From positions 1-14,302 of IMG/VR virus record IMGVR_UViG_2778261167_000006: a stretch of DNA of 14,302 bases, one strand, 5' to 3'. Under the pieces are notes generated by a model. It saw nothing but the letters and a program-made list of their open reading frames with translations, searched no databases and had not been told where the DNA came from. The stretch is from a virus. Lineage: Duplodnaviria > Heunggongvirae > Uroviricota > Caudoviricetes. Each line of letters starts with the position of its first letter. Position 1 is the stretch's first letter. The position numbers and the translations under genes were made by a program. Shown one piece after another: positions 1-14,302 of the stretch.

Positions 1-1047
1 TTAACAAATGTTTTTTATTTCAGTTACAGTCTGATTAAATCTCTCTTCTTCCAGTTCCACGCCAATCGCACGGCGTCCCAGTGAAAGTGCCGCTTTTATT
101 GTTGAGCCAGACCCCATAAAAAAATCAGCAACCAAATCACCAGGGCGACTGCTGGCATCAATTATCTGCCGCAACATATCCGCCGGTTTTTCACAGGGAT
201 GTTTGCCCGGATAAAACTGCACGGGTTTATGCGTCCAGACATCCGTATAAGGAACAGCTGCTGATACGGAAAAATAACGCCGCAGGGATTTGTACTCTTC
301 CAGCAGGCTGGCATATTGCCGGTTCAGTTCACTGTATACGCTGACCAGCCGGTGGTGTGGCTTTTCCAGTTCCCCACGCTGATGTTTTTCTGCTGCAACA
401 CGCGCAAACAACGCCTGTAATTTCAGATAATCGCCTTCGTTCGGCAACTGCCACTGGCTGATACCAAACCAGTGCGAAGCCATGTTTTTCTTTCCGGTGG
501 CTTCCGCTATCTGTTTTGACGTTATTCCCAGTGATTCACGCGCATCACGAAAGTAAGAAATCAGCGGGGCCATGACGTGCTGTTTAAGGTCGCGCCCCTT
601 TGCCGCATAGCCGTCATTTTTGGGCTGGTATGGCCCCTGATAATGTTCTGCAAACAGAATGCGTTCTGTTGCCGGGAAATACGCCCGCAGGCTTTCCTTG
701 TTGCATCCGTTCCAGCGTCCGGACGGCTTCGCCCAGATAATGTGGTTCAGCACATTAAAGCGTTCACGCATCATGATTTCGGTGTCAGATGCCAGGCGAT
801 GACCACAGAACAGGTAGAGACTTCCGGCAGGTTTCAGTACCCGCCAGAATTGCGCCAGACACTGATCCAGCCATTTCAGGTAATCATCGTCGCCCTTCCA
901 CTGGTTATCCCAGCCCTCGGGCTTCACTTTAAAGTATGGCGGGTCTGTGACTATCAGATCGACAGAGTTTTCCGGTAAGGTCTGGATAAATTCCAGGCAA
1001 TCAGCGTTGATTAACTCGCAACTGGATATTTTTACAGTATTAGCCAT
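1..1047 (-). CDS. DNA methyltransferase, N6-adenine or N4-cytosine type (motif order suggests beta class)
   Basis: 348-aa ORF with DLIVTDPPYF (catalytic DPPY motif) near the N-terminus and FFMGSGST (FxGxG SAM-binding motif) near the C-terminus. Stop TAA at 1-3, start ATG at 1045-1047. Confidence 0.85.
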   Translation of the reverse strand: MANTVKISSCELINADCLEFIQTLPENSVDLIVTDPPYFKVKPEGWDNQWKGDDDYLKWLDQCLAQFWRVLKPAGSLYLFCGHRLASDTEIMMRERFNVLNHIIWAKPSGRWNGCNKESLRAYFPATERILFAEHYQGPYQPKNDGYAAKGRDLKQHVMAPLISYFRDARESLGITSKQIAEATGKKNMASHWFGISQWQLPNEGDYLKLQALFARVAAEKHQRGELEKPHHRLVSVYSELNRQYASLLEEYKSLRRYFSVSAAVPYTDVWTHKPVQFYPGKHPCEKPADMLRQIIDASSRPGDLVADFFMGSGSTIKAALSLGRRAIGVELEEERFNQTVTEIKNIC

Positions 1048-1182
1048 AGATCAATAAGCACTTCTCTGATAGGCTCATTCCGCTTTTGCGCAAAGCAGAT
1101 GGGCCTGAGGTTTGCTTGTGACCCCAACGCATGAGCAGATGGCTGGCAGGTGCCGCTAACACCCACCAGCCGCCCATTACCA

Positions 1183-1211
1183 CAAATAAAAAAGCCTTCA
1201 CTGAGGAAGGC
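1183..1211 (-). terminator. Rho-independent terminator for minus-strand transcription, overlapping the 3' end of the small wHTH gene
   Basis: Inverted repeat GCCTTC (1194-1199) / GAAGGC (1206-1211) with a 6-nt loop, followed on the minus strand by a U-run (plus-strand aaataaaaaa at 1184-1193). Confidence 0.55.
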
Positions 1212-1395
1212 GTCTGTAACAACCGAACTGATAATCAGCCAGACCCGCCATAACAAGCTGGGTCAGTATTAACTGGCAACGTTCGCGTGAAAGGTAAGTA
1301 TTCTGCGCAATTTCCCCGACGGTCGCCGGTTCGGTGACGCTTAATTCATTAAACACCACTCTGGCGGTTTCGGTCATATCCTGCTGTTTTAGCAT
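1198..1395 (-). CDS. Small (65 aa) putative winged-helix DNA-binding protein, function unknown
   Basis: Internal Met of ORF 1198..1566 preceded by AAGGGA about 8 nt upstream. The longer N-terminal extension would read through a terminator hairpin, so the short start is preferred. Sequence TVGEIAQNTYLSRERCQLILTQL resembles an HTH recognition segment. Confidence 0.5.
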   Translation of the reverse strand: MLKQQDMTETARVVFNELSVTEPATVGEIAQNTYLSRERCQLILTQLVMAGLADYQFGCYRRLPQ

Positions 1396-1517
1396 GTCTT
1401 TTTCCCTTTTCTCGTTAACGTGACATACCAATAACTCTTGTCGAAAAAGCCAGCAAGCTGAAAGCCTCGTATCCGCAACCACCAGCGCGTTTAACGTCCT
1501 GTGCCGCTTTTTGGGCG

Positions 1518-1541
1518 CAAAAAACCCGCTCAGTGGCGGGT
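1518..1541 (-). terminator. Rho-independent terminator (minus strand; possibly bidirectional)
   Basis: Plus strand caaaaaACCCGCtcagtgGCGGGTtt: 6-bp GC-rich stem, 6-nt loop, flanked by an A6 run (a U-run on the minus strand) and a short T-run on the plus side. Confidence 0.5.
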
Positions 1542-1657
1542 TTAAGCTGTGTGGCGAAGTTACCACTCTTCACCAAGTATTCGGTAATAAAATAACTTGT
1601 GGTGTTCTCGTTTTTATGCCGATAAAATAAACGGTCCACTTTCAAATGGAGCGATTC

Positions 1658-2578
1658 ATGATTTTTCTCAGAACTGAAAACGGCATCGAGAAACTTGAAA
1701 ACTGGGAGGAAATTATATCCAGACCAAACTTTGTCACCGCTATAGACAAAGGAGTTCAACAACTTGAGGAGATAATTGGTTACTACAAATTTAAAGAAGA
1801 AATCCACTGTGGTCTAACTGGTTGCAACCAACCACATCAAATGGGTTATATTGTAAAAACATCTAGTGGCATTGAAACCAACATCGGAAATAAATGTGGT
1901 AAAAACGAATTTGGTGTGGAATTTGGTGAAAACGTTCTTAGTTTCAATAAATTTATGCAACTCGAAACCAATCGGGAAATTATTAGTGCCGCAAAAAGTA
2001 AATGTGAAGCGTGGCAAAAAAATATTGAAACGATACGAAATATTAAACCCACAATAGATTATCTATCTTCTACCATCGAAAATAGTAAAAATTCCAATTA
2101 CGCCGGAAGACTTGGTGCTACAGAAATTCGTTTTTTGACCAAGAGCCAGACAGGCCTTGTAACCCTTTCTGAAGTGGAAACTGATAAGAATACCAAAACA
2201 ATTCTGTTCGCAATGAATGAACACATGCGCGAGTCTGGAGAAGCAATAAGTGAATTCTACATAGGAAAAGTATCATTTAGTCATGTTCTTTTACCAGAAA
2301 ACAATCTTCGTGATTTTTTTGTTGCGCTCAAAGAAGATCTAAAAAAAATTCAGTGTATTGATCTACAAACAGCCCCAAGCCCAGAAATTTCTAATGTTGC
2401 CAAAATTGCCAGTTCAATCGAAGAACGAATCAAACGATTAAAAAAACTGAAACATGAAGCCAGTAAATTCCTAACTAAAAAAAATCTGCATCCCATCGCA
2501 AACAAAATAAAATACTCATCGACAGCGGATGAACTTGAATTCCATAATTTCGAACGCTTTTTAAACGGGCTGAAATGA
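1658..2578 (+). CDS. Hypothetical protein (306 aa), AT-rich lone gene on the opposite strand to its neighbours; candidate accessory (moron) gene
   Basis: Long ORF with GGAG 6 nt upstream of ATG 1658 (the ORF track starts at ATG 1646). GC about 35% by hand count of sampled lines, against about 55-60% in the helicase region. Contains HCGLTGC...CGKNEF cysteines but no motif I can assign. Confidence 0.7.
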   Translation: MIFLRTENGIEKLENWEEIISRPNFVTAIDKGVQQLEEIIGYYKFKEEIHCGLTGCNQPHQMGYIVKTSSGIETNIGNKCGKNEFGVEFGENVLSFNKFMQLETNREIISAAKSKCEAWQKNIETIRNIKPTIDYLSSTIENSKNSNYAGRLGATEIRFLTKSQTGLVTLSEVETDKNTKTILFAMNEHMRESGEAISEFYIGKVSFSHVLLPENNLRDFFVALKEDLKKIQCIDLQTAPSPEISNVAKIASSIEERIKRLKKLKHEASKFLTKKNLHPIANKIKYSSTADELEFHNFERFLNGLK

Positions 2579-2581
2579 TAA

Positions 2582-2599
2582 AAGCCCCGAAAGGGGCTT
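2582..2599. terminator. Stem-loop between convergent genes (possible bidirectional terminator)
   Basis: AAGCCCCgaaaGGGGCTT, a 7-bp stem with a 4-nt loop, lying between the stop of the plus-strand gene (2578) and the stop of the minus-strand 276-aa gene (2693). Flanking U-runs are weak on both strands. Confidence 0.35.
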
Positions 2600-2692
2600 C
2601 TATCAAAATCATTTACGCATTATTCCGCATGCTCAAAAGAATACATGACAGATTCGGACAAAATCAAGTGCAATGTCGCAAAAAGCCTAAGT

Positions 2693-3523
2693 TTAGTTCA
2701 CATCATCACCAAAACTTGTCACATTCTGAAAAGCAATATCGGCCTTATGCTCTTCCTGGTGACAAATGTCAACCAGAGAATCAAGAAACGGCTTCCAATT
2801 ACGTGTCCATGTCCTGACATGTAGCTCGGGTATCCGCTTCAGTACAACTTTATATACTGTGGTAGACGGTATCGTGGAAAATCCATTTCCGCTACAACGT
2901 TCGCAGATTTTAAACACTGGCACACCACGCTCGCTTGTGGCTTTGCGGTCCAGTACCTCTCCCTTTCCACCACAACGACACCTGGCACTTATCACTCCCT
3001 TCCCTTTACATACATCGCAAACGACTGGTACAACTTCTGTTACCTCTGTCCATTTCTCCCAGTCTGACGGTCGAACAGCACGGGAGCGACTGGCCCAATA
3101 TGGTGCTTTACCCCATGGGTATGAAACCTTACGAATGACCTGCTTACGGGGTGTTAGTCCGGTACCACTGCAACTATGGCATGTTACGCTGGTGGCCGCC
3201 GATCGGGAATACTCAGCAAAAGCAAACTGCGCCAGTACCAGCATACACCAGCCAAATTCACCACCAGCTGCTTTACGCACATTCTTCGGTGCAATTTCCA
3301 TCGCGTGACGCGCCAGCGCCTGGACTGCCATCTGCTCATCAGTCTTGCTGATACCTGCCTTCCCGAAGAAGGCCACCAGACCAAACCGCTCACGATTGCT
3401 GGTGGTACCAATAGCCGCCATAACATCGGTGCCTGTAAGACGTTCCGGAGAGGTTCCTTTCACATCGTCGCCGATATACATTCCCTGAGGACTGAAGTAT
3501 TTTAGCGATGCCTCAAGCTTCAT
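2693..3523 (-). CDS. Zinc-finger protein with four CxxCxGxG repeats (DnaJ cysteine-rich-domain type); last gene of the replication operon
   Basis: 276-aa ORF with CHSCSGTG, CDVCKGKG, CRCGGKG and CERCSGNG. GGGGAG lies 8 nt upstream of the ATG; the ATG overlaps the upstream gene's stop (TAATG). Confidence 0.75.
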   Translation of the reverse strand: MKLEASLKYFSPQGMYIGDDVKGTSPERLTGTDVMAAIGTTSNRERFGLVAFFGKAGISKTDEQMAVQALARHAMEIAPKNVRKAAGGEFGWCMLVLAQFAFAEYSRSAATSVTCHSCSGTGLTPRKQVIRKVSYPWGKAPYWASRSRAVRPSDWEKWTEVTEVVPVVCDVCKGKGVISARCRCGGKGEVLDRKATSERGVPVFKICERCSGNGFSTIPSTTVYKVVLKRIPELHVRTWTRNWKPFLDSLVDICHQEEHKADIAFQNVTSFGDDVN

Positions 3524-4380
3524 TATTCACACTCCCCAACCAGATTGAGAATGACCGCTGCACCGTCGTCTTCCATGCATTCACCCTTACCACTTGCCAG
3601 AAACCAGCGGCACACCTCCACGGCTTCAGCGCGTGTCACCGGTTTGATAGTTGCCAGCAATTTTTCAAGGTAGCGCTCCCGGTCATATACTGATTCGTGA
3701 TGCTCAGAGTAACCAAACTCATCGCCCTGTTCTTTAGTTGCAGTGTGGCGAACACTGTAGAGCCAGTCCCAGTAAACGAACTCGCGAACAACATCAGACA
3801 GCGTATAAGGCTCAGGCAGCACATCGCGATATCCATCAACAAATGCCCGACGCTGTTCATCAATTTCGTTCATGCGGCTGCCGCCAATGCTTCCGGCTTT
3901 TTTCTCTGCCGCAGTCCAGCCCCAGAGATGATCGTTGATAAATTTCTTGGAAGACCTGATGACCCGCTCTGCTTCCACATCTTCGAGCGCTGCTTCATAG
4001 CTACCAAACGTAGCCCTGACTGATGCCGCTTTTTTGATGTTCTCCCGGGCGTTCCTGATAACCTGCGCAGGGTTATCCATGCCGATGATGCCGAACGCAA
4101 CCTGGAAAGGTTCGTAACCATTCGCCAGCAGATAACGCGAATAGCGTTCCTGAGCCTCTTTTGGGGAAATTTTAATTTTCACCAGCGCAGCCTCAGCAGC
4201 ATCCAGATGTGCGGGTTCGTTCAGACGGATAACCTCCAGCACCCAAAGATAAGCATCAGTCTGCTTATGCCCGGTGATTCTCCGTTGCTCTGGCAGGGGC
4301 TTGATGTTTGTGAGGGCGGAGCTGTACGCTGCCGTCGGGATGGTGAATAGTGCTTTATGTTCGTTATTATCAGTACGCAT
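3523..4380 (-). CDS. Hypothetical phage protein (285 aa), coupled between primase and the zinc-finger protein
   Basis: Long ORF with TAATG start/stop overlaps at both ends (4378-4382 and 3521-3525), placing it in the same operon. No recognisable motif. Confidence 0.65.
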   Translation of the reverse strand: MRTDNNEHKALFTIPTAAYSSALTNIKPLPEQRRITGHKQTDAYLWVLEVIRLNEPAHLDAAEAALVKIKISPKEAQERYSRYLLANGYEPFQVAFGIIGMDNPAQVIRNARENIKKAASVRATFGSYEAALEDVEAERVIRSSKKFINDHLWGWTAAEKKAGSIGGSRMNEIDEQRRAFVDGYRDVLPEPYTLSDVVREFVYWDWLYSVRHTATKEQGDEFGYSEHHESVYDRERYLEKLLATIKPVTRAEAVEVCRWFLASGKGECMEDDGAAVILNLVGECE

Positions 4381-5348
4381 TACGCAACCGCCTTTTTCTT
4401 ATGGAAAACCAGCTCTCGAACCTGATCACCGTTCATGAGCATATTGTTGAAATCATCGTGATCCGGCCAGTACACGCTCACGCGCTGCAGGTCATTCTTT
4501 GCCATCAGATTGGCATGAGCACATTCGCAAGCCGCAGCCAGCCCGGTGGCGCTGTTCTCGTCACGGTCGGCAAAAATAATCAGGTGCAGAACACCAGCTG
4601 GTACGCGGAACTTTTTCATAAAGCCGCTGTTAATGGTTGCCCAGGTGTTCACGTTATAAATCTGGTGCGCTGACAGCGCTGTTTCGATGCCTTCGGCGAT
4701 ACCCAGAGTGCTGGCGACAGGAAACATGCGGATAGCTACAGAACGAGCGTGATCCAAATAGTTATCTTCCTGCAGGGATTTGAGGCGCTTTGCACTGCTA
4801 CCGATATCTGCTTTTTTATCACCATCAAGCAGAGTCTGGTGCAGATAGCACAGCTCCCCTTTATCGTCCGTAGCAAGTGAATAAAGAGACTGGAACACAC
4901 TCCCGTTGTGTCTCTGCCTGGCATTGAACCGGATCGCCTCAGCAGGAAGACTGAATATTCCACGAGAATTAAGATACGCTGCGCCGGATGTACCACGCAG
5001 TGCCTCCAGTTTTGAAAACTTGCTCAATACCCGTTTGCGTAAGCTGGTGGCGCTGCTGGTTACCGGGATTTTAACCCGTTGGTAATCATTACCGATCAGG
5101 CGGTCTATTTCGGTACAAATCTCGTTAAATGGCTTCGCCTGTGTCAGGGTGACAAGTTTCATACCATCGCCACTACCACATACACAGATCCACGTTCCTG
5201 CACCGTCGCGGTCATCAATTCGGAACTTGCCACGTGCACCGCATACCGGGCATTCACCCTTGAAGTGATTTTTTCCGGTTATCGGCGGCAGACCGAAGTG
5301 CTCTAATATTTCAGGCCAGCGGCCTTTCGCTGCATCTGCTGTTTTCAT
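4380..5348 (-). CDS. DNA primase, TOPRIM type with N-terminal zinc-binding motif
   Basis: 322-aa ORF. N-terminal CPVCG...CVCG zinc-ribbon-like motif; IAEGIETALS (conserved TOPRIM Glu) and IIFADRDENSATGLAAA (DxD motif). Start lies 2 nt after the helicase stop. Confidence 0.85.
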   Translation of the reverse strand: MKTADAAKGRWPEILEHFGLPPITGKNHFKGECPVCGARGKFRIDDRDGAGTWICVCGSGDGMKLVTLTQAKPFNEICTEIDRLIGNDYQRVKIPVTSSATSLRKRVLSKFSKLEALRGTSGAAYLNSRGIFSLPAEAIRFNARQRHNGSVFQSLYSLATDDKGELCYLHQTLLDGDKKADIGSSAKRLKSLQEDNYLDHARSVAIRMFPVASTLGIAEGIETALSAHQIYNVNTWATINSGFMKKFRVPAGVLHLIIFADRDENSATGLAAACECAHANLMAKNDLQRVSVYWPDHDDFNNMLMNGDQVRELVFHKKKAVA

Positions 5349-5349
5349 C

Positions 5350-7008
5350 TTACTGACTCAGACTGTTTATATTTTTCTGGAGTTGGTGCTTTGCCTGCAT
5401 GATGCGCCAGGCCTCACTGCCTGCCGGCATCTCACGTCGTTCATCACGTTCCTGAGATAAATCAATCGTTGTTTGTGCGTTTTCAGTGACCTTCTGAACC
5501 CGCTGACGGCCTTTGGCAAACCGAATCAGCTTGTGTTTGATGTAGTTACTTACCTCTGGGCTTATTTCCATCGGGAAACTGCTCAACCCATCAGGCCATT
5601 CACCGAATTTCTCCCTGAAAGTGTGAGCACACCATCCATCACTGACTGGACGCCCCAGCGAAGCACGCTGGCGCTGATAAAATTTGATCTGACTCCACCA
5701 GGACTGTTTCTCTGCCTTCGTCGACTGATGCTGATTTTTACCCAGCTTATTAAGTTTGCGGCTAGTGTCAGTATCAACGTCTTCACCTCGCAGCGGCTTG
5801 TGTCCACATTTCGGGCAAACATAGACGCCAGCTGGCTTCATGTAGTGGCATTGAGGGCATTCATGTGGCAGTTTTTCGGCCCGTTCCTCAACTGCGCGGC
5901 GCGCGCTTTCCTCCATACCGTCAGACTTGCCGGGAAGATCGTCGTACTCGATTGAATCCGGATAACCCAGACGGTGCACGGTGCCGCTATGATCGAAGAT
6001 GAGGCAGGACTCTTTACCCGGTGCGGTGCGCAGCCCACGCCCGAGTGCCTGCAACCAGCGAATTTCGCTTTTTGTTGGCCTGGCGTAGATGATGCAACGA
6101 ACGTCACTATCGAAGCCGGCCACCAGCACGCCCACACTAACGATGATTTTCGTTGCACCAGTTTCAAAGCGGTGAATGATGGTCTGGCGCTCATCTACCG
6201 GAGTGTCTGCGGTCATTACCTCAGCGTTAACACCTGCGAGGTTAAACTGGATTGTCAGGTAATTGGCGTGGGCTACGTTGACGCAGAAAGCGATGGTAGG
6301 TAGATCCCGACCATTCTCCAGCCAGTTCTGTACAATGTCGCCCACCAGCGTAGATCCGCACATGATTTCAGCTAGCTGCGTTTCGTTGTAATCCCGGCCG
6401 TACTCAAGCGAAGATGTGGTTTTAACACCTTTCAGATCCGGCTTAGTTGGCGCGTAAAATTCGTATTTACTCAGATCGCCACGCTGGATTAACTCGCCGA
6501 TTGTGGTCGGCTTAATCAGTCGGTCATAGTATTTGCCCAGGAACGGGGAAAACGGAGTACCCGACAGGCCAATCACCTTTACGCCTTTGCCGCGCAGACG
6601 TTCGATATCCTTCAGGATGCGTTTTTTACGCAGGTGCGCTTCGTCGATAATCAGCAGATCGATATTTTCAGGAAAAACACGACGAATAAGCGTGTCAGCG
6701 CTGGCAATCTGAATTTTCCGGTCCGGATCGTAGTTCGGGTGATCCGCCCAGATATAACCGATTTCATCTCCAGGTAAACCATACTGCACGAACCGATTAG
6801 CCGTCTGACCAATCAGGATGGTGTACGGAACACAGAACAGGACGCGCATACCACGACTGACAAACCCGGCAACGATGAAGGCAGCCAAACCCGTTTTACC
6901 GCTACCGGTTGGCGAATACACCATGAAGGTGTCGTTTGCCTTCCAATCACGGCGCAACATGTTTAGCGCTCGTTCCTGTGCAAAATTCGGCGTGATCGTC
7001 AGCTCCAT
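5350..7008 (-). CDS. Superfamily-2 DEAD/DEAH-box helicase with C-terminal zinc ribbon (replicative helicase)
   Basis: 552-aa ORF. Walker A SPTGSGKT, motif II IDEAH, motif III-like SGTP, C-terminal CPQCH...CPKCG. GGGAG 7 nt upstream of the start. Confidence 0.9.
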   Translation of the reverse strand: MELTITPNFAQERALNMLRRDWKANDTFMVYSPTGSGKTGLAAFIVAGFVSRGMRVLFCVPYTILIGQTANRFVQYGLPGDEIGYIWADHPNYDPDRKIQIASADTLIRRVFPENIDLLIIDEAHLRKKRILKDIERLRGKGVKVIGLSGTPFSPFLGKYYDRLIKPTTIGELIQRGDLSKYEFYAPTKPDLKGVKTTSSLEYGRDYNETQLAEIMCGSTLVGDIVQNWLENGRDLPTIAFCVNVAHANYLTIQFNLAGVNAEVMTADTPVDERQTIIHRFETGATKIIVSVGVLVAGFDSDVRCIIYARPTKSEIRWLQALGRGLRTAPGKESCLIFDHSGTVHRLGYPDSIEYDDLPGKSDGMEESARRAVEERAEKLPHECPQCHYMKPAGVYVCPKCGHKPLRGEDVDTDTSRKLNKLGKNQHQSTKAEKQSWWSQIKFYQRQRASLGRPVSDGWCAHTFREKFGEWPDGLSSFPMEISPEVSNYIKHKLIRFAKGRQRVQKVTENAQTTIDLSQERDERREMPAGSEAWRIMQAKHQLQKNINSLSQ

Positions 7009-7270
7009 TGTGCTGCTCCCGTGCTGATGAGATAATAATTTCGTGATGTGGTTTTCATGGATTCCCCCTCACATGGCTGGTGGCCTCCCCAAAGGCTGCC
7101 AGCCCCCTTTCTGATTCAGCTCCTCTGAAAAATCACTCTTCCAAGAAGAACCCTTTTCGTTTCTCAAGGCCTGGGCGCTTTGTACTACCTTGCTGATACG
7201 AGCGTTTTTTTAAATTGCGCCCTTAAGACAGTGATCTACTTAACCAATGGATCTCTCCTGTTGGAAAAGA

Positions 7271-7324
7271 CCCTATTCCTGCCCCTACACCCAATCCCCC
7301 CCTACCCCCCTTTCCCTCTTCCCC
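7271..7324. repeat. Polypyrimidine, C-run-rich tract (G-run-rich on the minus strand) in a noncoding region
   Basis: Plus strand ccctattcctgcccctacacccaatccccccctacccccctttccctcttcccc; the minus strand carries consecutive G-runs. No ORF covers it. Confidence 0.6.
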
Positions 7325-7350
7325 ATAAAAACGTACTACTTACCTAGTAC
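7325..7350 (-). terminator. Weak terminator-like hairpin downstream of the cII-position gene
   Basis: Plus strand ataaaaac + GTACTA cttacc TAGTAC; on the minus strand this is a 6-bp AT-rich stem followed by GUUUUUAU. Confidence 0.3.
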
Positions 7351-7421
7351 ATATGAGGAATTGGGTCAGTTGGTTGCCAACCTGAACAGGCACCTTTAAG
7401 CCTGCTTCTGTTCGGGTGCCT

Positions 7422-7730
7422 TTAAACCCGAAACAATGAGGAGCGCGATAGCGATCCAGCCAGGGGCGGCTGAGTTGTATACCCCTGTAAAGCCCTGCCC
7501 TGATTTCTCACAAACAAGCGGAGCCTTGTGTTTGCTTCGTGCCTTGCTCTGTTCTCCTTGCGGAATGAAACAGGCTCAGCGTCAAAAGTGATTTCGTATA
7601 CCTCCGCATATTTCAGGGCGACCTTCCGTCTCAGTGACGGAGGCAGCCCCTGTAACTGCTGCTGAATCCACTCTTCGTCTGCCTGGCAGTACCTAGATGG
7701 CATCTCTGTCTGAACGTAATTCTGGGACAT
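7422..7730 (-). CDS. Hypothetical protein (102 aa) at the position lambda gives to cII; no similarity to lambda CII recognised
   Basis: ORF immediately downstream of the Cro-like gene on the same strand, overlapping it by 38 nt. Confidence 0.5.
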   Translation of the reverse strand: MSQNYVQTEMPSRYCQADEEWIQQQLQGLPPSLRRKVALKYAEVYEITFDAEPVSFRKENRARHEANTRLRLFVRNQGRALQGYTTQPPLAGSLSRSSLFRV

Positions 7731-7980
7731 ACAAGCCCTTCACCTCCGCCGTGCGCGCTAAGCTTGGATGTGGAAAAAGCTCTGGTAGGTCTGGACGAAA
7801 TTCATACGCTTGGATCTTTCCGTCGACAGCTGCAACCAATAACGGCACAAATTCTGGTGAAATCTTGTTCTTGCAGTTCAACCAATCGCAGACTGTTGAC
7901 TGGGCCTTTCCGCATCGCTTGGCTAAGGCTTGCTGACTTCCAAGAATCTCAATAGCTTTCTCTATGGCTTTATGTTTCAT
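7693..7980 (-). CDS. Cro-like HTH DNA-binding protein
   Basis: HTH segment GSQQALAKRCGKAQSTVCDWL. Start chosen at the Met preceded by AGGAGA 7 nt upstream (plus-strand tctcct at 7988-7993). Divergent from the CI-like gene. Confidence 0.75.
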   Translation of the reverse strand: MKHKAIEKAIEILGSQQALAKRCGKAQSTVCDWLNCKNKISPEFVPLLVAAVDGKIQAYEFRPDLPELFPHPSLARTAEVKGLYVPELRSDRDAI

Positions 7981-8002
7981 AATCGCATCTCCTATTGAGC
8001 GC

Positions 8003-8031
8003 ATAATAGCAACAGAAAAAGCGATATTCAA
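8003..8031 (-). promoter_or_regulatory. Putative sigma-70 promoter for the Cro-like gene (PR analog)
   Basis: Minus strand TTGAAT, 17-bp spacer, TATTAT (plus-strand attcaa at 8026-8031 and ataata at 8003-8008), about 15 nt upstream of the RBS. Confidence 0.5.
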
Positions 8032-8047
8032 CGTTAAACCTAGATCA

Positions 8048-8067
8048 TTTATCGGAAAGCCGATAAA
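8048..8067. promoter_or_regulatory. Perfect palindrome, candidate repressor/Cro operator
   Basis: TTTATCGG aaag CCGATAAA: perfect 8-bp inverted repeat with a 4-bp spacer, about 35-50 bp upstream of the CI-like start codon. Confidence 0.45.
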
Positions 8068-8099
8068 CTAACCAGGATAGAAAGGGGAGGAAAATCGCA

Positions 8100-8792
8100 A
8101 TGACATTTTCAGAACGACTTGATTTAGCTATGCGCAACGCAAAATTTACGCAAGGTAGGCTGGCCAAAGAAGTGGGTATGGCTCAGTCCAGTGTTAATCA
8201 ACTACTTAATAAAGCCAACGGTTCCAGAAAAACAGTCGAAATAGCAAAAGTTTTGGGCGTTAACCCGGAATGGCTCGCATCGGGTGTTGGCCCAATGGAA
8301 ATCGTGACCTCTGCAGACTCACACCAAATACGTAACATTTCTGAAGATTGGGTTACTGATTCGTATGTCGTGGATGTTTTAGACATCAGATATAGTTGCG
8401 GACCTGGTAGTTATAACTCTGATTTTCCTGACATTGTCAGATCTATAGCGATAGAACCAGGATACGCATCAAGAGTTTTTGGCGGCAGACCAGCATCAGC
8501 AATCAAAGCAATAAACGCCCACGGCGACAGTATGAAAGGCACAATAGACCCTGAAGACTTGGTATTTGTAGATGTATCAGTTCGCACATTTAATGGTGAT
8601 GGTATATACGCCTTTACATACTCTGGAACATCGCACATCAAAAGACTTCAAAAAATCAAAGATACTCTAACGGTGATATCTGACAACCCAGCTTACAAGG
8701 ATTGGGCTATCGAACCGGAAGACTTCGAACAACTTCACATTGACGGAAAAGTAATTGTCAGTTGGCCCATGACACTACACCGTTTTGCATAA
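8100..8792 (+). CDS. CI-like repressor: N-terminal XRE-type HTH plus C-terminal S24 (LexA-like) autopeptidase domain
   Basis: 230-aa ORF. HTH segment QGRLAKEVGMAQSSVNQL; C-terminal GDSM (Ser nucleophile) and downstream HIKRL (Lys). AGGGGAGG RBS before the ATG. Confidence 0.9.
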   Translation: MTFSERLDLAMRNAKFTQGRLAKEVGMAQSSVNQLLNKANGSRKTVEIAKVLGVNPEWLASGVGPMEIVTSADSHQIRNISEDWVTDSYVVDVLDIRYSCGPGSYNSDFPDIVRSIAIEPGYASRVFGGRPASAIKAINAHGDSMKGTIDPEDLVFVDVSVRTFNGDGIYAFTYSGTSHIKRLQKIKDTLTVISDNPAYKDWAIEPEDFEQLHIDGKVIVSWPMTLHRFA

Positions 8793-8810
8793 GCAAAAAT
8801 CATTTAACCC

Positions 8811-8837
8811 GCCCACTCTTAAGTGGGCTTTTTTTTT
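8811..8837 (+). terminator. Rho-independent terminator after the repressor gene
   Basis: GCCCACT ctta AGTGGGC (7-bp stem) followed by T9. Confidence 0.8.
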
Positions 8838-8859
8838 GGAAAAAAAATCGATAAACCGA

Positions 8860-8888
8860 TTGACAGGTAAAATCGGCGAACCTATTAT
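8860..8888 (+). promoter_or_regulatory. Near-consensus sigma-70 promoter (PL-like or lysogenic-conversion promoter)
   Basis: TTGACA (8860-8865), 17-bp spacer, TATTAT (8883-8888). Inverted repeat ACCTAT (8880-8885) / ATAGGT (8895-8900) overlaps the -10 and the predicted start site. Confidence 0.6.
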
Positions 8889-8937
8889 CATGACATAGGT
8901 ATCGAACTCACCAAAGCAATTATAGAGGATGAGAAAA

Positions 8938-9348
8938 ATGTCATCGTATATGGGGTTACCAACAAATCAGCACGATGCTCTTGAGAATATTCAGCTCTTA
9001 GTAGGGGCTGGTGCACTACTGTATAGCAGCAATAACCCTGAGTTAATTGAACTTGCCAGCTCCATCCTGGCTGTAACTCAAAAATATAGCCTCACCGCGT
9101 CACGTTTATGCAAACAAAATTTAGCTATTAATTCCCAGAATCGGATTCGCACCCAACGCGAAGCCTGCGGCTTAACAACCGCCGAACTCGCCAGGCTGCT
9201 CGATCTCGATGAAGAAATCATCATCCAGTGGGAGAGCGGAGAGTATGAACCAACTATCAGTATGCTTATCCCGCTGGCAAATGTTCTTGGTTGCGACCCG
9301 ATGTGGCTGTTAACCAGTAAACCAACAGCTGGGGATACTTGCGCATGA
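8938..9348 (+). CDS. Two-domain protein (136 aa): unknown N-terminal domain plus C-terminal XRE-family HTH
   Basis: AGAGGA 8 nt upstream of ATG 8938 (the ORF track starts at ATG 8929, which has no spacer). C-terminal HTH segment LTTAELARLLDLDEEIIIQWESGEYEPTISMLIPLANVLGCDPMWLL. Confidence 0.7.
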   Translation: MSSYMGLPTNQHDALENIQLLVGAGALLYSSNNPELIELASSILAVTQKYSLTASRLCKQNLAINSQNRIRTQREACGLTTAELARLLDLDEEIIIQWESGEYEPTISMLIPLANVLGCDPMWLLTSKPTAGDTCA

Positions 9349-9710
9349 AAAAGTTCGAAAACATAACTGTTCTCCATGTTGATGAATTTGATTATACAAA
9401 CCAGGAATTTCTCCCGGAGGTTATAAAAGCAATAGAAGTTGCCGATATAGTGTTTAGAGGAAAGAGAATTGTCAAAAACAGGCTCGCATGCACTTCAGGA
9501 GCAATGACAGAAACAACCTCACAACAAGATGATTATGAAGGCATTTGTCTGGAGCCTGATTCATTTGCGGTAAATGTTTATCATTTATTGCATGCAACAC
9601 AGGTATTACATATGTCCAGTAATCACGAGACAAAAACACTTGGCAGCGAAATTCTGAATTTTGCATGTGAATATGCAAAAGCTGCTGCCGAAAAAGAATT
9701 AGCACAATAA
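9345..9710 (+). CDS. Hypothetical protein (121 aa), translationally coupled to the upstream HTH gene
   Basis: ATG 9345-9347 overlaps the upstream stop TGA 9346-9348 (ATGA). AT-rich, about 33% GC in a sampled line. No recognisable motif. Confidence 0.65.
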   Translation: MKKFENITVLHVDEFDYTNQEFLPEVIKAIEVADIVFRGKRIVKNRLACTSGAMTETTSQQDDYEGICLEPDSFAVNVYHLLHATQVLHMSSNHETKTLGSEILNFACEYAKAAAEKELAQ

Positions 9711-9908
9711 CAACAAACATGCCCTGAACGTTTATTACGGTTTTATCGCCGGGGATTGTTACAACCTTTATTCATAGAGGGAAATCAGTTATGACTTTCC
9801 TGAAAAATAAGGCATCGTATAAAACTGCCTGCCTCATTGCACAACATGGAGATTCTTATCTTCATATAGCCAACCTGTATTTGCGCAAAGCATATGGGAG
9901 ATAAGTCA

Positions 9909-10097
9909 ATGGAAGAAAAACAACAAAACATAACACATAAAAAAGTAAGAGTGTTGCTAACCATTGAAAATGGTGAAGTAATTTACTCAAAACATCTGTT
10001 GGATAATGAATTCGTTGGCTGCATGGATACATTTCTGTGGATGGCAAAAAGAGCGGGTTACACGATTATTCCACCAGCAAAGGAGCAAACATTATGA
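9909..10097 (+). CDS. Hypothetical small protein (62 aa), first gene of a coupled pair
   Basis: GGGAG 8 nt upstream of ATG 9909; stop TGA 10095-10097 overlaps the next start ATG 10094-10096. AT-rich, about 27% GC in a sampled line. Confidence 0.5.
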   Translation: MEEKQQNITHKKVRVLLTIENGEVIYSKHLLDNEFVGCMDTFLWMAKRAGYTIIPPAKEQTL

Positions 10098-10675
10098 ATC
10101 ATTCAGAGTTCCGACCAGAAGTTACGCCACATGGCATAAAAATTGGCAATACAACCATTGATTATGTTGAGGCCGTACAGCGGCTTAATGATGGTGAATA
10201 CGATTATCCAAACTCACACGGTTTAAGAATCATGCAATGTATTGCTGAAGCCGATGATGCAGGGTTGCTGGGACGATTCTCAGTCGATATGAAGGTTGCT
10301 CAGTGGCGATGGCTGTATGTGACTACGTTTATAAATGAAGAGAAAGACAAGAACGGTACCGTTGATATCCCTAACGATAACGGAACTACAGATCACGCAG
10401 TTATTTACAAGGGTAAACATGGTTGCCTGAGTATCTACCCCGGACCACTTCGTATTGCCCTGCAAAACCACGTCGAATGGGGATTTATTGAAAAATATGG
10501 CGAAGCTGAAGGTATGGGGCGAGTTCTGTTTCTCTATCAAAAAATGCTCATCGCAGATCCTGATAATGGTTTCATTATTTCTGCTATGGGGCGCGAAGAG
10601 CTTGAACTCCTTCTGGATGAAATGATGAACGATCTGAATACTCATGGTATGCCAGAAGCGCCAGTGACACATTAA
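10094..10675 (+). CDS. Hypothetical protein (193 aa), second gene of a coupled pair
   Basis: AGGAG 8 nt upstream of ATG 10094; ATGA overlap with the upstream small ORF. The track ORF starting at 10037 lacks an RBS. Confidence 0.65.
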   Translation: MNHSEFRPEVTPHGIKIGNTTIDYVEAVQRLNDGEYDYPNSHGLRIMQCIAEADDAGLLGRFSVDMKVAQWRWLYVTTFINEEKDKNGTVDIPNDNGTTDHAVIYKGKHGCLSIYPGPLRIALQNHVEWGFIEKYGEAEGMGRVLFLYQKMLIADPDNGFIISAMGREELELLLDEMMNDLNTHGMPEAPVTH

Positions 10676-10720
10676 ATATTAAGAAGAATATAATTCTTCC
10701 ATCGTTTACTAACCGTTTAT

Positions 10721-10828
10721 ATGAAAAACAACCGTGAATTAAACAGAGTAAAACTGATTTTAATCCTTGCCACAGTACTGACACTAACTGAAATCATTAT
10801 TCTCTTTATTGCGCTGTCAGTCGGTTAA
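10721..10828 (+). CDS. Possible small hydrophobic peptide (35 aa, single predicted transmembrane segment)
   Basis: ATG...TAA ORF translating to MKNNRELNRVKLILILATVLTLTEIIILFIALSVG. No clear Shine-Dalgarno; below the size cut-off of the ORF track. Confidence 0.25.
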   Translation: MKNNRELNRVKLILILATVLTLTEIIILFIALSVG

Positions 10829-10851
10829 AAATATCGGGATACCACAGACCA

Positions 10852-11040
10852 ATGAGACTGTATTTCACAATAGTAATTTTACTGGCAATTATCGCATGCA
10901 TTTACGGATTACTCGTTCCGTTCCTTATATCCATGAAGGATACGATAGCCGTTACTTCTGGCTTTGCACTGGCGTTTCTGACCCCGCCCTGCATTTATGC
11001 CATTTACAAGGGTCTTTCTTTCACTAAGGATAAAAGATGA
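10852..11040 (+). CDS. Small membrane protein (62 aa, two predicted hydrophobic helices)
   Basis: Hydrophobic stretches IVILLAIIACIYGLLVPFLI and GFALAFLTPPCIYAIY. Stop TGA 11038-11040 overlaps the start of the SPFH gene (ATGA). Weak RBS. Confidence 0.5.
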   Translation: MRLYFTIVILLAIIACIYGLLVPFLISMKDTIAVTSGFALAFLTPPCIYAIYKGLSFTKDKR

Positions 11041-11864
11041 AAAAAATTATTTTTGCTTTAGCCATTGTTCTGCCGACTATTGGCCTTGTCGGTTGCGATC
11101 GCGTTGAACCAGGTAATGTTGGCATCAAGGTAAATAAACTGGGCGACGACAAAGGCGTCGGTGAGGTGGTCGGTGTTGGTCGCTACTGGACTGGCTGGAA
11201 TACTGAAGTTTACATCTTCCCCACCTTCAAGCAAATGAAGACCTACGATGAACCGTTCAGTTTCCAGATGAGTGACGGTACAACCATCGGCTATCACATT
11301 GGCGTGGCCTACAAAGTTGATCCATCCAAAGTTACCACGGTGTTTCAGACCTACCGCAAAGGCGTGGATGACATTACAGACACCGACCTGCGCCAGAAGA
11401 TCGCCGACGCACTCAACCGACTGGCCAGCAAAATGACCACCGACAAATTTATCGACGGCGGCAAGTCTGAGCTACTGGATGAAGCTCTTAAAGACATTCA
11501 GGCAGAGATGACACCCATCGGTATTCAGGTAATGAGCCTCTCATATGTGGGTAAGCCGGAGTACCCGCCTACTGTTATCGACAGCATTAATGCCAAAGTC
11601 ACGGCGAACCAGAAAACACTGCAGCGCGAGCAGGAAGTTAAACAGCGCGAAGCGGAAGCCAACATGTTGCGCGCGGAAGCTGCCGGACAGGCTGATGCTA
11701 TTCGCACAAAAGCCCAGGCTGAAGCCGACGCCATTCGTTTACGCGGTGAAGCTCTGCGCCAGAACCCCGGTGTTATGGAGCTGGAAGCCATCAATAAATG
11801 GAACGGCACACTGCCGCAATACATGACCAGCGGTGCTAATACACCATTTATCCAGGTTAAATAA
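11037..11864 (+). CDS. SPFH/band-7 (stomatin/prohibitin/HflKC-like) domain lipoprotein
   Basis: N-terminal lipoprotein signal MKKIIFALAIVLPTIGLVGC (lipobox LVGC). Central region typical of SPFH proteins; C-terminal Ala/Gln/Glu/Arg-rich coiled-coil-like segment. AAGGA 6 nt upstream of the ATG. Confidence 0.75.
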   Translation: MKKIIFALAIVLPTIGLVGCDRVEPGNVGIKVNKLGDDKGVGEVVGVGRYWTGWNTEVYIFPTFKQMKTYDEPFSFQMSDGTTIGYHIGVAYKVDPSKVTTVFQTYRKGVDDITDTDLRQKIADALNRLASKMTTDKFIDGGKSELLDEALKDIQAEMTPIGIQVMSLSYVGKPEYPPTVIDSINAKVTANQKTLQREQEVKQREAEANMLRAEAAGQADAIRTKAQAEADAIRLRGEALRQNPGVMELEAINKWNGTLPQYMTSGANTPFIQVK

Positions 11865-11871
11865 CTTATAT

Positions 11872-11890
11872 GCCCGGCAGGCCGCCGGGC
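11872..11890 (+). other. GC-rich stem-loop immediately after the SPFH gene (no U-tract)
   Basis: GCCCGGC aggcc GCCGGGC, a 7-bp stem, followed by taaggg rather than a T-run. Confidence 0.4.
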
Positions 11891-11904
11891 TAAGGGAAAT
11901 GCAG

Positions 11905-12264
11905 ATGAACACCCAGAATACTCAACCGCAAATAATGAACTATGACCCAAATCTGACGTCATGCGGACGCATGGCAAAACAAACCGTTCGATTAACTTTC
12001 GGACTATGGGAATACCGCGAAACATTCGAAGTCACTGTCGGCGGCAATCTGACCGGACTGGATGTTATCAGTTGCGCTATTGAAAGCCTGTACGCAACGC
12101 TGCCTTATGAAGAAGTCGAGGATGAGCGCGATATCATAGCCACCATTAATATCGGCGGACTGGAATGCAAGGATGAAAACCTGTCCGGAGAGCTCTGGCT
12201 TGCCGGGATGCTTATCTCAGCAGAAATCATCAGCATTGAACCCGCTACAAACATACGACTCTGA
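11905..12264 (+). CDS. Hypothetical protein (119 aa)
   Basis: AAGGGA 7 nt upstream of ATG 11905; the track ORF's earlier Mets lack RBS spacing. No recognisable motif. Confidence 0.55.
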   Translation: MNTQNTQPQIMNYDPNLTSCGRMAKQTVRLTFGLWEYRETFEVTVGGNLTGLDVISCAIESLYATLPYEEVEDERDIIATINIGGLECKDENLSGELWLAGMLISAEIISIEPATNIRL

Positions 12265-12295
12265 AGTTCTCACTATTCAGAGAGCAGGAGAAAAA

Positions 12296-12538
12296 ATGTT
12301 CGCTTTGATTAATCAGGGACAACTGTATACCGACAGTGCCGGTTACCCGGTAAGAATTATTCGCTGCATAAATAACACCGTGTTGTACAGAAGAATGGAT
12401 GGGCGAACACAGTCGGTAAAAATAAACGATTTTAATGAAACGTTTGAACGGCTCGATCATCAGGAATACCTACAAATTCTGGCAGAAACAGAGCAGGAAA
12501 CTCATCTGAAGAAATTACGAGCCATGCAAAGGAAGTAA
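12296..12538 (+). CDS. Hypothetical small protein (80 aa)
   Basis: AGGAG 5 nt upstream of ATG 12296, an internal Met of track ORF 12173..12538. Confidence 0.55.
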   Translation: MFALINQGQLYTDSAGYPVRIIRCINNTVLYRRMDGRTQSVKINDFNETFERLDHQEYLQILAETEQETHLKKLRAMQRK

Positions 12539-12541
12539 AAA

Positions 12542-12688
12542 ATGAATAAAGCGTTTGAGCTATGGGTACGCCAGCGTTACGGCAATCGCTATGACCTGAC
12601 GCGAGATGTTGACGGTTTCTACTGCCGTGAAATTGTAAAACGAATGTTTGAAGTGTGGTGCCACTGCCGTGGGCTGAGTGTTGTGTGA
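12542..12688 (+). CDS. Possible small protein (48 aa)
   Basis: ATG 12542 follows AGGAAG about 8 nt upstream and runs to TGA 12686-12688; translation MNKAFELWVRQRYGNRYDLTRDVDGFYCREIVKRMFEVWCHCRGLSVV. Below the ORF-track size cut-off. Confidence 0.35.
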   Translation: MNKAFELWVRQRYGNRYDLTRDVDGFYCREIVKRMFEVWCHCRGLSVV

Positions 12689-12696
12689 GGTAATGC

Positions 12697-12933
12697 ATGG
12701 GCAATGTGATTCAACTGGCTCCCAATGAATGGGTTTGTGAAAGCGTTCTTATCGCAATTACCGGGCTCAAACCAGGCACAATTCTCCGGGCCCGGAAAGA
12801 ATGCTGGATGGTAGGAAGAGAGTATATTCACGTATCGCCTGACGGTAATCCAAAACCTTCCAGCGAGTGTATGTATAACAGAAAAGCAATCGATGCCTGG
12901 GTCGCTTCAATGAAAAACAAACAACCTGGGTGA
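12697..12933 (+). CDS. xis: Excisionase-like small DNA-binding protein (recombination directionality factor)
   Basis: 78-aa ORF immediately upstream of the integrase on the same strand. WVCESVLIAITGLKPGTILRARKECWMVGREYIHV matches, from memory, the prophage excisionase-like family seen upstream of e14/Rac-type integrases. Confidence 0.7.
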   Translation: MGNVIQLAPNEWVCESVLIAITGLKPGTILRARKECWMVGREYIHVSPDGNPKPSSECMYNRKAIDAWVASMKNKQPG

Positions 12934-12988
12934 TTTAATACCATGAAATATGTAAGCTCGTATCGCTCTTGGGCGTCTGGAGGTATCG

Positions 12989-14302
12989 ATGGATAAAGTC
13001 AAATATCCAACAGGCGTCGAAAACCACGGTGGCACATTACGCATCTGGTTTAATTTTAAAGGTAAACGTGTCAGGGAAAATCTTGGTGTCCCTGACACTG
13101 CCAAGAACAGGAAGATCGCCGGAGAGCTGCGGACATCTGTATGTTTTGCCATTCGTACAGGAAACTTTGATTACGCTGCGCAGTTCCCTGACTCTCCTAA
13201 CCTCAAGGCTTTTGGAGTAAATAAAAAAGAAATTACGGTGAAAGAGCTTGAAGAAAAGTGGCTGGATCTGAAACGCATGGAAATCTCTGCAAATGCATTC
13301 AATCGCTATGAGTCCGTTGCAAGAACAATGATTCCGAAAATTGGAGGTAGCAGACTGGTGTCAACGGTGACCAAAGAGGAATTGCTGTATATCAGGAAAG
13401 ATTTGCTGACCGGATATCATAATTCAACGAAAGACAAAGCACCAGCAAGAGGACGGAGTGTCGTTACTGTAAATTATTATATGACGACAATCGCTGGAAT
13501 GTTTCAGTTTGCTGCAGATCACGGTTACTTAGAAGCAAATCCCTTCGAGGGAATTAAGCCTCTTAAAAGAGCCAGGGCAGAGCCAGATCCGCTAACTCGT
13601 GACGAATTTATTCGCCTGATAGATGCTTGCCGGCATCAGCAGACAAAAAACCTGTGGTCATTGGCTGTGTACACAGGAATGCGTCATGGTGAACTGGTCT
13701 CCCTGGCCTGGGAAGATATCGATCTGAAAGCAGGAACAATTACTATCAGGCGCAATTATACGAAACTCGGTGAGTTCACTCTACCTAAAACTGAAGCAAG
13801 TACAAACAGGGTTGTGCATCTTATCCAGCCCGCTATCAGTGTCCTGAAAAATCAGGCTGAAATGACAAGACTGGGTAAGCAGCACCACATCAAGGTTCAA
13901 CTACGTGAATATGGACGTTCAGTGAATCATGAATGTACTTTCGTATTTAACCCCCAGGTGGTTAGAAAAAGCAAACAGGTAGGTTTTATCTACAAGGTAG
14001 ATTCCATTGGCGACTCATGGGAAACAGCCATTAAGCGTGCAGGCATCAGGCATCGAAAGGCATACCAGTCACGACACACTTATGCGTGCTGGTCATTATC
14101 TGCCGGAGCAAATCCAAGCTTCATTGCCAGCCAGATGGGCCATGCAAGTGCCCAGATGGTGTTCAATGTATACGGAGCCTGGATGACTGACAGCAATGCA
14201 GAACAGATCGCAATGCTGAATCAGAAGCTGGCAGATTATGTCCCAATGATGTCCCATGGTCACCAAAGTGACACAAGAGACTTATTAAAATCAGTAGGTT
14301 AG
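12989..14302 (+). CDS. int: Tyrosine recombinase / phage integrase
   Basis: 437-aa ORF with an N-terminal arm-binding-type region (YPTGVE...GTLRIWFNFKGKRVRE) and a C-terminal catalytic region with conserved Arg (MRHGELV), His/Arg (SRHTYA) and a Tyr near the C-terminus (VYGAWM). GGAGG 5 nt upstream of the ATG. Confidence 0.9.
   Translation: MDKVKYPTGVENHGGTLRIWFNFKGKRVRENLGVPDTAKNRKIAGELRTSVCFAIRTGNFDYAAQFPDSPNLKAFGVNKKEITVKELEEKWLDLKRMEISANAFNRYESVARTMIPKIGGSRLVSTVTKEELLYIRKDLLTGYHNSTKDKAPARGRSVVTVNYYMTTIAGMFQFAADHGYLEANPFEGIKPLKRARAEPDPLTRDEFIRLIDACRHQQTKNLWSLAVYTGMRHGELVSLAWEDIDLKAGTITIRRNYTKLGEFTLPKTEASTNRVVHLIQPAISVLKNQAEMTRLGKQHHIKVQLREYGRSVNHECTFVFNPQVVRKSKQVGFIYKVDSIGDSWETAIKRAGIRHRKAYQSRHTYACWSLSAGANPSFIASQMGHASAQMVFNVYGAWMTDSNAEQIAMLNQKLADYVPMMSHGHQSDTRDLLKSVG

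Follow-up and report, generated by a model that had tools for sequence, protein, structure and literature searches.

We describe here a pair of adjoining genes in a 14,302-nucleotide (nt) stretch of phage DNA (IMG/VR record IMGVR_UViG_2778261167_000006, positions 1 to 14,302; the whole stretch is called the window below), which by its gene content is the early region of a lambdoid Escherichia coli prophage. The first gene encodes a hydrophobic protein of 62 amino acids (aa) with the layout of a two-helix hairpin, and the second a 275-aa lipoprotein with an SPFH (Band 7) domain. The main new result is that the pair is a conserved module that is found across very different phages. It is a real and widespread phage module, built on the known theme of an SPFH scaffold with a small membrane partner. 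SPFH proteins, such as stomatin, prohibitin and flotillin as well as HflK/C, occur throughout life, and their functions in bacteria are poorly understood.

The pairing was surveyed by inspecting phage lineages one at a time, since broader locus searches, with a single protein or a 12-sequence alignment as query, returned only near-identical E. coli prophage loci. Thirteen lineages from phages of Gram-negative hosts were covered, the window included. With the hairpin as query, tblastn gave weak but specific matches adjoining the SPFH gene in rV5-like myoviruses and others. In the window and in nine other lineages of the 13 a hairpin of PHROG 1130 is encoded directly 5' of an SPFH lipoprotein of PHROG 200, and all of the nine have a small protein with two transmembrane (TM) segments and the turn motif P-x-L-[VI]-S-A-x-[DS]-T, which is the consensus of the hairpin family. 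The nine are the P1-like Escherichia phage RCS47, the Salmonella jumbo phage PHA46, the N4-like phage Moo19, where the two genes are annotated as the equivalents of N4 gp19 and gp20, the Vequintavirinae (rV5-like) Salmonella phage SSE121, with one extra small gene between the two, the Pseudomonas phage Pae_U2, the Burkholderia phage PhiBt-E264.1 and the Agrobacterium myophage OLIVR5, these three with a 4-nt overlap between the genes, bajarodcaudo virus 1 and the Prevotella megaphage Lak-B7.

Annotation has missed the hairpin gene both in RCS47 and in the original phiP27 record. In RCS47 (locus L085) it is an unannotated 73-aa open reading frame (ORF), MQNNPNKCRTLWVRLYIY..., at ~2290-2504, that ends where the annotated SPFH lipoprotein gene starts. 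The extra gene of SSE121 (locus L083, 2332-2496), present at the same position in NINP13076, encodes a 54-aa soluble charged protein and overlaps both its neighbours; it could be a third component specific to the Vequintavirinae. A tblastn match to the SPFH protein in the Agrobacterium phage OLIVR1 (locus L194) was set aside, since the genes annotated there as 'band 7-like protein' are on the other strand. The annotated ORF has an implausible translation, and the strand call of the record is probably wrong at this place.

Two hairpin homologues could be traced in public assemblies to 11 independent prophage loci of Enterobacteriaceae and Pseudomonas aeruginosa, and in every one of these, within the operon that runs from cI to int, a Band_7 gene comes after the hairpin gene and overlaps it by 4 nt. 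Distant SPFH relatives adjoin a single-TM mini-protein in Staphylococcus Kayvirus (MbpV-MbpS), Bacillus phage B4, Enterococcus phage ZJGS2 and the Halorubrum virus HSTV-4. A profile search for the hairpin in a large protein database gave only 43 small standalone proteins, a result that says nothing on its pairing with other domains.

The two parts also occur as one protein. When 1.84 billion cluster representatives were searched exhaustively with HMMER, 3019 clusters proved to be related to the family (228 at E<=1e-30), and 18 of the best 150 family representatives are in-frame fusions of 320-390 aa (P0125, P0129 and P0237 among them), where a hairpin module is followed by a basic linker, a hydrophobic segment ending in Cys, and the SPFH domain. 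The lipobox Cys after this third hydrophobic segment is kept in all 18 fusions inspected, which suggests that signal peptidase II may cut them at the internal site and so regenerate a two-part system. Their predicted topology is self-consistent with that of the split pair: with the hairpin N-in/C-in the linker would be cytoplasmic, and the third hydrophobic segment would bring the SPFH domain into the periplasm as a signal peptide does. Eight free-standing hairpins were put into one alignment with the N-terminal parts of 14 fusions, and 19 of these 22 sequences match PHROG 1130. Three of the fusion ORFs were confirmed in assembled DNA (at loci among L196-L200), one in three separate sequencing runs and another on a 68-kb contig that also carries an integrase; a fusion protein used as locus query returned three loci, none with a fusion. 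Some fusions, for instance P0125, have an internal Met as a possible separate start. The combination of gene fusion, kept adjacency and translational coupling is, as genomic evidence goes, a strong indication that the hairpin and the SPFH protein act as one complex.

An earlier note on this DNA, made from the letters of the sequence, had described an SPFH protein with a lipobox and a coiled-coil-like C-terminal segment, translationally coupled to a 62-aa hydrophobic protein, and had named the lack of an SPFH fold in structure prediction as what would count against it. This description is borne out at every point. Both ORFs lie on the + strand at the positions that it gave (Table 1) and the ATGA overlap is present, so that the TGA of the hairpin gene overlaps the ATG of the SPFH gene, with an AAGGA read in the sequence six bases 5' of that ATG. 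The fold is present and is followed by a long helix, the lipobox LVGC with Cys20 was found in a predicted lipoprotein signal, and the partner is a two-helix protein that matches PHROG 1130 'membrane protein' at E=6.4e-23. In its AlphaFold2 (AF2) model the partner has helices at 2-26 and 31-61, joined by a four-residue turn, with a predicted local distance difference test score (pLDDT) of 78. It is predicted to sit in the inner membrane, N-in/C-in and with a basic C-terminal tail, KDKR, so that the predicted place of its turn motif is the periplasmic side. Two hairpin alignments, of 22 and 26 sequences, have Pro23 as an invariant residue, and Ser27 is nearly invariant in the first and invariant in the second. 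The ratio of nonsynonymous to synonymous substitution rates (dN/dS) among close relatives is ~0.17, a sign of purifying selection, and 0.02 for the SPFH gene. A Pfam search with the 62-aa protein gave no match at E<=0.01, the best hint being Holin_SPP1 at E=0.2, which is noise.

The 275-aa protein is assigned to PHROG 200 'lipoprotein' (E=2.7e-114), and its residues 22-208 match Pfam Band_7 (PF01145) at E=3e-31, with 109.2 bits where the cut-off is 23.6. Its AF2 model, with a mean pLDDT of 90.8, consists of a beta-rich SPFH domain (20-175), a 65-residue helix (178-242), a short helix and a flexible tail. Foldseek gave full-length matches in the PDB, with HflC (8e-14) and HflK (2e-13) at the top, followed by prohibitin 1/2, erlin 1/2, stomatin, flotillin and QmcA, at E-values down to 1e-8; the probability was 1.00 for HflC/K, prohibitin, erlin, stomatin and flotillin. 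These are all proteins that form cages. The best PDB match by sequence is HflK (E=4e-4). The helix 178-242 aligns with those of HflK and prohibitin-2 and is the equivalent of the CC1 helix that forms the wall of SPFH cages. Close to the C-terminus, in a region of low pLDDT, 57 diverse homologues have W255 without exception, and G257 and P260 almost without exception.

The signal peptide is of the typical kind and MKKIIFALAIVLPTIGLVG-C20 satisfies the lipobox pattern [LVI][ASTVI][GAS]C in a regular-expression search. Cys20 is invariant in alignments of 57 and 12 homologues, the 57 having been picked mostly from lipobox-bearing sequences. A lipobox could be recognised in 105 close homologues; 101 of them have Asp at +2 and four have Glu. 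An Asp at +2 is the classical signal for retention in the inner membrane (Lol avoidance) in E. coli, and the acidic residue in 105 of 105 suggests that the SPFH lipoprotein is retained there. Because this residue is found together with an inner-membrane hairpin partner, the SPFH domain would be placed on the periplasmic face of the inner membrane, in the orientation of HflK/C.

The pair is present in 574 of 5426 complete E. coli genomes (about one in ten), by way of prophages and plasmids, and the SPFH protein is 100% identical to L05 of phage phiP27, which was labelled 'putative serine protease' in 2001, so the two genes are not chance ORFs. Among phages, 737 of 50,697 records (~1.5%) carry the SPFH protein, and these include 206 records of Staphylococcus, 53 of Enterococcus, 26 of Caulobacter and 25 of Halorubrum viruses; the carriers comprise Kayvirus, Vequintavirinae, Schitoviridae, phiCbK-like, jumbo and haloarchaeal viruses. 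We take most of the records in these four host groups to be lytic viruses, and many of the carriers to be obligately lytic. The protein is also found in 634 plasmid records, of which 608 are non-mobilizable. Those listed are 93-438 kb long, and judged from this size they are probably mostly phage-plasmids. The SPFH protein of the window is 92% identical to that of a P1-like phage, 74% to that of a jumbo phage and 64% to that of an N4-like phage. Close relatives jump between unrelated phage types that share the same hosts, which is typical of an accessory gene that acts on the host cell and not on the phage machinery. Since the module is found in many strictly lytic phages, a general job in infected cells is a better description than the control of lysogeny.

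What this job might be can be outlined as follows. Our favoured explanation, to which we give about an even chance, is that both proteins are subunits of a single inner-membrane complex, namely a cage that faces the periplasm, has its own TM subunit and conditions or insulates the membrane. The 275-aa protein would be exported, lipidated at Cys20 and held in the inner membrane by the Asp at +2, with its SPFH domain on the periplasmic face as in HflK/C. Like all structurally characterised SPFH proteins that consist of the domain and a long helix, it would oligomerise, and the resulting ring or cage would be closed and set a patch of the membrane apart. Through translational coupling the hairpin would be made in roughly matched amounts and serve as the TM partner of the cage, showing its Pro-x-Leu-[Val/Ile]-Ser-Ala-x-Asp-Thr turn to the membrane-facing side of the SPFH domain. 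In the phages that encode a single polypeptide, the lipobox that is kept could let signal peptidase II split it into these two parts. Lying in the leftward early operon, the module would be made early in lytic growth, and the inner membrane would be conditioned or insulated, either to block the DNA entry of superinfecting phages or to guard against premature damage. Membrane-level exclusion, which the earlier note had offered as its second suggestion, seems plausible. A bolder form of the explanation, namely a self-contained viral membrane-cage system of SPFH ring and TM hairpin, spread horizontally from lambdoid prophages to Prevotella megaphages, that walls off part of the host inner membrane for superinfection immunity or as a guard against membrane-targeting abortive-infection effectors, is possible and in our view clearly less probable.

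Several points weigh against this explanation. The pairing is not universal: the Enterobacter phage phi63_307 has no TM protein 5' of its SPFH gene, and the canonical hairpin is lacking in Bruynoghevirus, where a different protein with a C-terminal TM helix is found, and in Caulobacter phage Ccr32, where there is a 116-aa multi-TM protein. An Arg at +3 may weaken the retention by Asp(+2) in E. coli, and in distant members of the family the +2 position is taken by Ser, Thr or one of many others, so that the protein may not be located alike in all hosts. The structure predictions are of monomers, and the oligomerisation and the contact between hairpin and SPFH protein are what we infer from them and from the comparisons above. 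The timing of expression is read from gene order, and no flanking promoter or terminator stands above chance. A role in exclusion or protection has no direct support: the pair and its four neighbours have no match to a known defence system in PADLOC-DB v2 at E<=0.01, and no similarity to known exclusion proteins was found. Literature searches found no functional study of a phage SPFH lipoprotein.

The earlier note had gone further and suggested that the pair could modulate FtsH and the decision between lysis and lysogeny. The phage SPFH cage would then capture or compete for the host FtsH in the manner of HflK/C, stabilise its substrates, for instance Xis, a CII-like activator or membrane proteins of the phage, and shift the decision in temperate phages. 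In favour of such a function, HflC and HflK lead the structural matches, HflK is also the best match by sequence, and the SPFH domain is predicted to be periplasmic like theirs. Furthermore, the early-left operon that holds the pair is the region of the FtsH inhibitor gene, cIII, in lambda, and a 'CII-like regulator' of PHROG 4836 is encoded in the same operon. HflK/C, prohibitins and erlins all have membrane proteolysis systems as partners. The resemblance to HflK/C holds for the fold and fails for the family, where the 275-aa protein stays far under the cut-offs of the four HflK/HflC equivalogs of NCBIfam that were tried (TIGR01932, TIGR01933, NF008181 and NF008259; 25.9 bits against 134.4, 23.1 against 159.4, 19 against 660 and 18.5 against 427). 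Identity to HflK/C is ~17-19%, the protein is lipid-anchored, there is one SPFH gene and not a K/C pair, and the hairpin has no counterpart in the HflKC-FtsH system. To our knowledge the hosts of the haloarchaeal viruses, where relatives occur, have no FtsH.

The distribution speaks against the lysogeny proposal. The module is common in phages known as obligately lytic, being found in N4-like phages, Vequintavirinae, Agrobacterium myophages, a Salmonella jumbo phage and a Prevotella megaphage, and distant relatives are found in Staphylococcus Kayvirus and in Enterococcus, Caulobacter and haloarchaeal viruses. A lysis-lysogeny role by way of FtsH and CII is thus unlikely as the general function, and we consider the FtsH explanation as a whole improbable. 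It persists as a rival in the form that lytic phages would capture FtsH to an end other than the control of lysogeny. The idea is not new: a link between such genes, HflK/C and lysogeny has been raised before (PMC4936722; PMC8540360), one of these papers objecting already that obligately lytic phages carry the gene (PMC8540360), and papers that mention the gene have called its role unclear (PMC13239085; PMC8540360).

About equally improbable in our judgement is that the hairpin is a holin-like or channel-forming peptide, timed by an SPFH cage that releases it to depolarise the membrane, with the effect of setting the time of lysis or of excluding competing phages abortively. Membrane proteins are known to be confined by SPFH cages, as FtsH is inside HflK/C. 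With 62 aa, two TM helices, a predicted N-in/C-in topology and a basic C-terminal tail the hairpin resembles class II holins in size and layout. That likeness is one of general layout; the 62-aa protein has no holin family match and does not adjoin an endolysin gene, and homology to holins was rejected, the matches being at noise level. Nor does the pair adjoin lysis genes in the other Gram-negative phages examined, and a stoichiometric fusion fits a structural partner equally well. In Kayvirus mbpV-mbpS lies between the endolysin gene lysK and the transglycosylase gene tgl, and MbpV has been described as resembling a holin (PMC7150955), but it is a single-TM protein and no more than a putative homologue of the hairpin. 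Far less probable still is a factor of lysogenic conversion, where a lipoprotein from the prophage would reach the outer membrane or vesicles and act on the animal host or the envelope. This would agree with the phenotypes of the prophage protein PM0222 (PMC9872710), which is HflK/C-like by description. The protein of the window is a predicted lipoprotein, and lipoproteins are typical ligands of Toll-like receptor (TLR) 2. Against this, the conserved Asp/Glu at +2, the hairpin partner and the fusions point to the inner membrane, no promoter signal above chance was found that would suggest independent expression in a lysogen, and a role in virulence makes no sense in the lytic phages of environmental bacteria among which the module is widespread.

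The genes around the pair are those of an early region (Table 1). All genes from 8100 rightward are on the + strand, and the right half of the window is essentially phage phiP27. Several small genes without an assigned function lie between the helix-turn-helix (HTH) protein and the pair, and genes for DUF5406, starting at 11905, and DUF4222 lie 3' of it, before the excisionase gene. The place between the cI-like repressor and xis/int makes it reasonable, from gene order, to speak of a PL-like leftward early operon as the earlier note did. The E. coli UMNF18 record in RefSeq has the same arrangement, labelled 'hypothetical protein' and then 'SPFH domain-containing protein'. A scan for promoters and terminators around the pair gave no signal above shuffled controls, and an independent moron cassette was rejected as an explanation for this reason.

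Table 1. Positions of the genes and sequence elements in the window.
Feature	Position	Strand	Basis or remark
62-aa two-helix hairpin protein gene	10852..11040	+	ORF, PHROG 1130
Hairpin turn motif P-F-L-I-S-M-K-D-T	10918..10944	+	Loop that joins both AF2 helices
Coupling element: Shine-Dalgarno-like AAGGA (11026-11030) and ATGA stop/start overlap (11037-11040)	11026..11040	+	
275-aa SPFH/Band-7 lipoprotein gene	11037..11864	+	PHROG 200, Pfam Band_7
Signal peptide (aa 1-19), lipobox L-V-G-C, Cys20 codon (11094-11096), Asp +2 (11097-11099)	11037..11099	+	
SPFH (Band 7) domain, aa 22-208	11100..11660	+	Pfam envelope; AF2 strands and helices 20-175
Single long Ala/Glu/Gln/Arg-rich helix, aa 178-242	11568..11762	+	AF2 pLDDT >90 over most of its length
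C-terminal motif W-N-G-T-L-P (family consensus W-D-G-x-L-P)	11799..11816	+	57-homologue alignment
DNA methylase gene	1-1047	-	
310-aa ORF	1646-2578	+	PHROG 7003, no Pfam match; opposite orientation to neighbours
Q antiterminator gene	2693-3523	-	
Primase gene	4380-5348	-	
SF2 helicase gene	5350-7008	-	
YdaS/Cro-like gene	7693-8031	-	
cI-like S24 repressor gene	8100-8792	+	
HTH protein, 139 aa	8929-9348	+	HTH_3, PHROG 4836 'CII-like regulator'
Two overlapping ORFs (139 aa and 123 aa) 3' of the repressor	8929-9710	+	
Excisionase gene	12697-12933	+	
Integrase gene	12989 to window end	+	

Some other features of the region were observed. In the AT-rich gap directly 5' of the hairpin gene there is a 35-aa ORF with a single TM segment, MKNNRELNRVKLILILATVLTLTEIIILFIALSVG, at 10721-10828 (+), which is absent from the RefSeq annotation of relatives and open in 50 of 51 related loci (22 nucleotide variants). 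It was considered as a third subunit, and a dN/dS of ~0.64 leaves its status as a gene uncertain. Between the SPFH stop codon and the DUF5406 start lies a perfect 7-bp GC inverted repeat (GCCCGGC-AGGCC-GCCGGGC, 11872-11890). It is not followed by a run of T and was not called as a terminator, and it could be a hairpin that stabilises the RNA or takes part in its processing. The 123-aa ORF that overlaps the HTH protein gene belongs to PHROG 5451 and has in addition a weak match to the CII-like family of its 139-aa neighbour; it is unusual in a lambdoid layout that the repressor side of the switch carries a CII-like regulator. The 310-aa ORF sits between the DNA methylase and the Q antiterminator, where a related prophage of UMNF18 has an ompC porin gene, and this slot looks like an exchangeable moron position.

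Genes of this kind carry labels such as 'serine protease', 'HflC' or 'high frequency of lysogenization protein', and at times their presence is taken to mark a temperate phage. As the SPFH gene occurs in lytic phages this use is unsafe, which matters when candidates for phage therapy are screened. The module is a minimal two-gene version of an SPFH system. If it does form a cage with its own TM partner, the assembly of SPFH cages and their contents could be studied in a simple system that is open to genetics, and phages would have a new class of accessory function, one that acts at the inner membrane. The viral membrane-cage reading, if true, would add a viral SPFH function that has not been described before and a compact model of SPFH cages.

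Among the known systems, E. coli HflK/HflC (7vhq, 7wi3, 9cz2) shares with the phage protein the order of an SPFH domain and one long wall-forming helix, and has the periplasmic position of the domain that is predicted for the phage protein. They differ in that the identity given above, measured in structural alignments, is low, that HflK and HflC have an N-terminal TM helix where the phage protein has a cleavable lipoprotein signal and a lipid anchor, and that they form a K/C pair, whereas the single phage SPFH gene has a dedicated 62-aa hairpin partner on one side and DUF5406 on the other. With scores more than 100 bits under the cut-offs, a lipid anchor and a single SPFH gene, the protein was rejected as an HflK or HflC. 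Small envelope proteins and lipoproteins of exclusion (T4 Imm and Sp, T5 Llp, Cor, Streptococcus thermophilus phage Ltp and HK97 gp15) are accessory in lytic and temperate phages alike and are possible functional analogues of the pair; no similarity in sequence or fold to the pair was found, and none of them has an SPFH domain.

PM0222, from a lambda-like prophage island of Pasteurella multocida, is the sole putative relative found that has experimental phenotypes. It is HflK/C-like, occurs in outer-membrane vesicles and is a TLR1/2 agonist, and its deletion alters capsule, adhesion, biofilm and virulence (PMC9872710). The roles reported concern the animal host and not the phage. In the MbpV-MbpS pair of Kayvirus, with which the single-TM and SPFH pairs of Bacillus phage B4 and of Enterococcus and Halorubrum viruses can be grouped, the gene of a phage SPFH protein (~25% identity by tblastn, E=3e-7) adjoins that of a small membrane protein. 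This SPFH protein is TM-anchored and not a clear lipoprotein, its partner combines one TM helix with a long charged tail, and the likeness of that partner to the 62-aa hairpin is one of position. The mbpV-mbpS genes lie among the lysis genes and have been suggested to aid the secretion of a lytic enzyme (PMC7150955).

A further parallel to the arrangement of the module is offered by the SPFH-NfeD operons, QmcA-YbbJ of E. coli (8z5g), PH1511-PH1510 of Pyrococcus and FloT-YuaF of Bacillus subtilis. The SPFH protein of the QmcA type faces the cytoplasm, whereas that of the phage is predicted to be exported, and the phage partner is a two-helix hairpin without the OB-fold domain of NfeD; being 62 aa long, with two helices only and no Pfam match, it was rejected as an NfeD-type partner. 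What the phage pair and these operons have in common is an SPFH gene with a small membrane partner that is co-transcribed with it, as the overlap of the two genes indicates for the phage pair.

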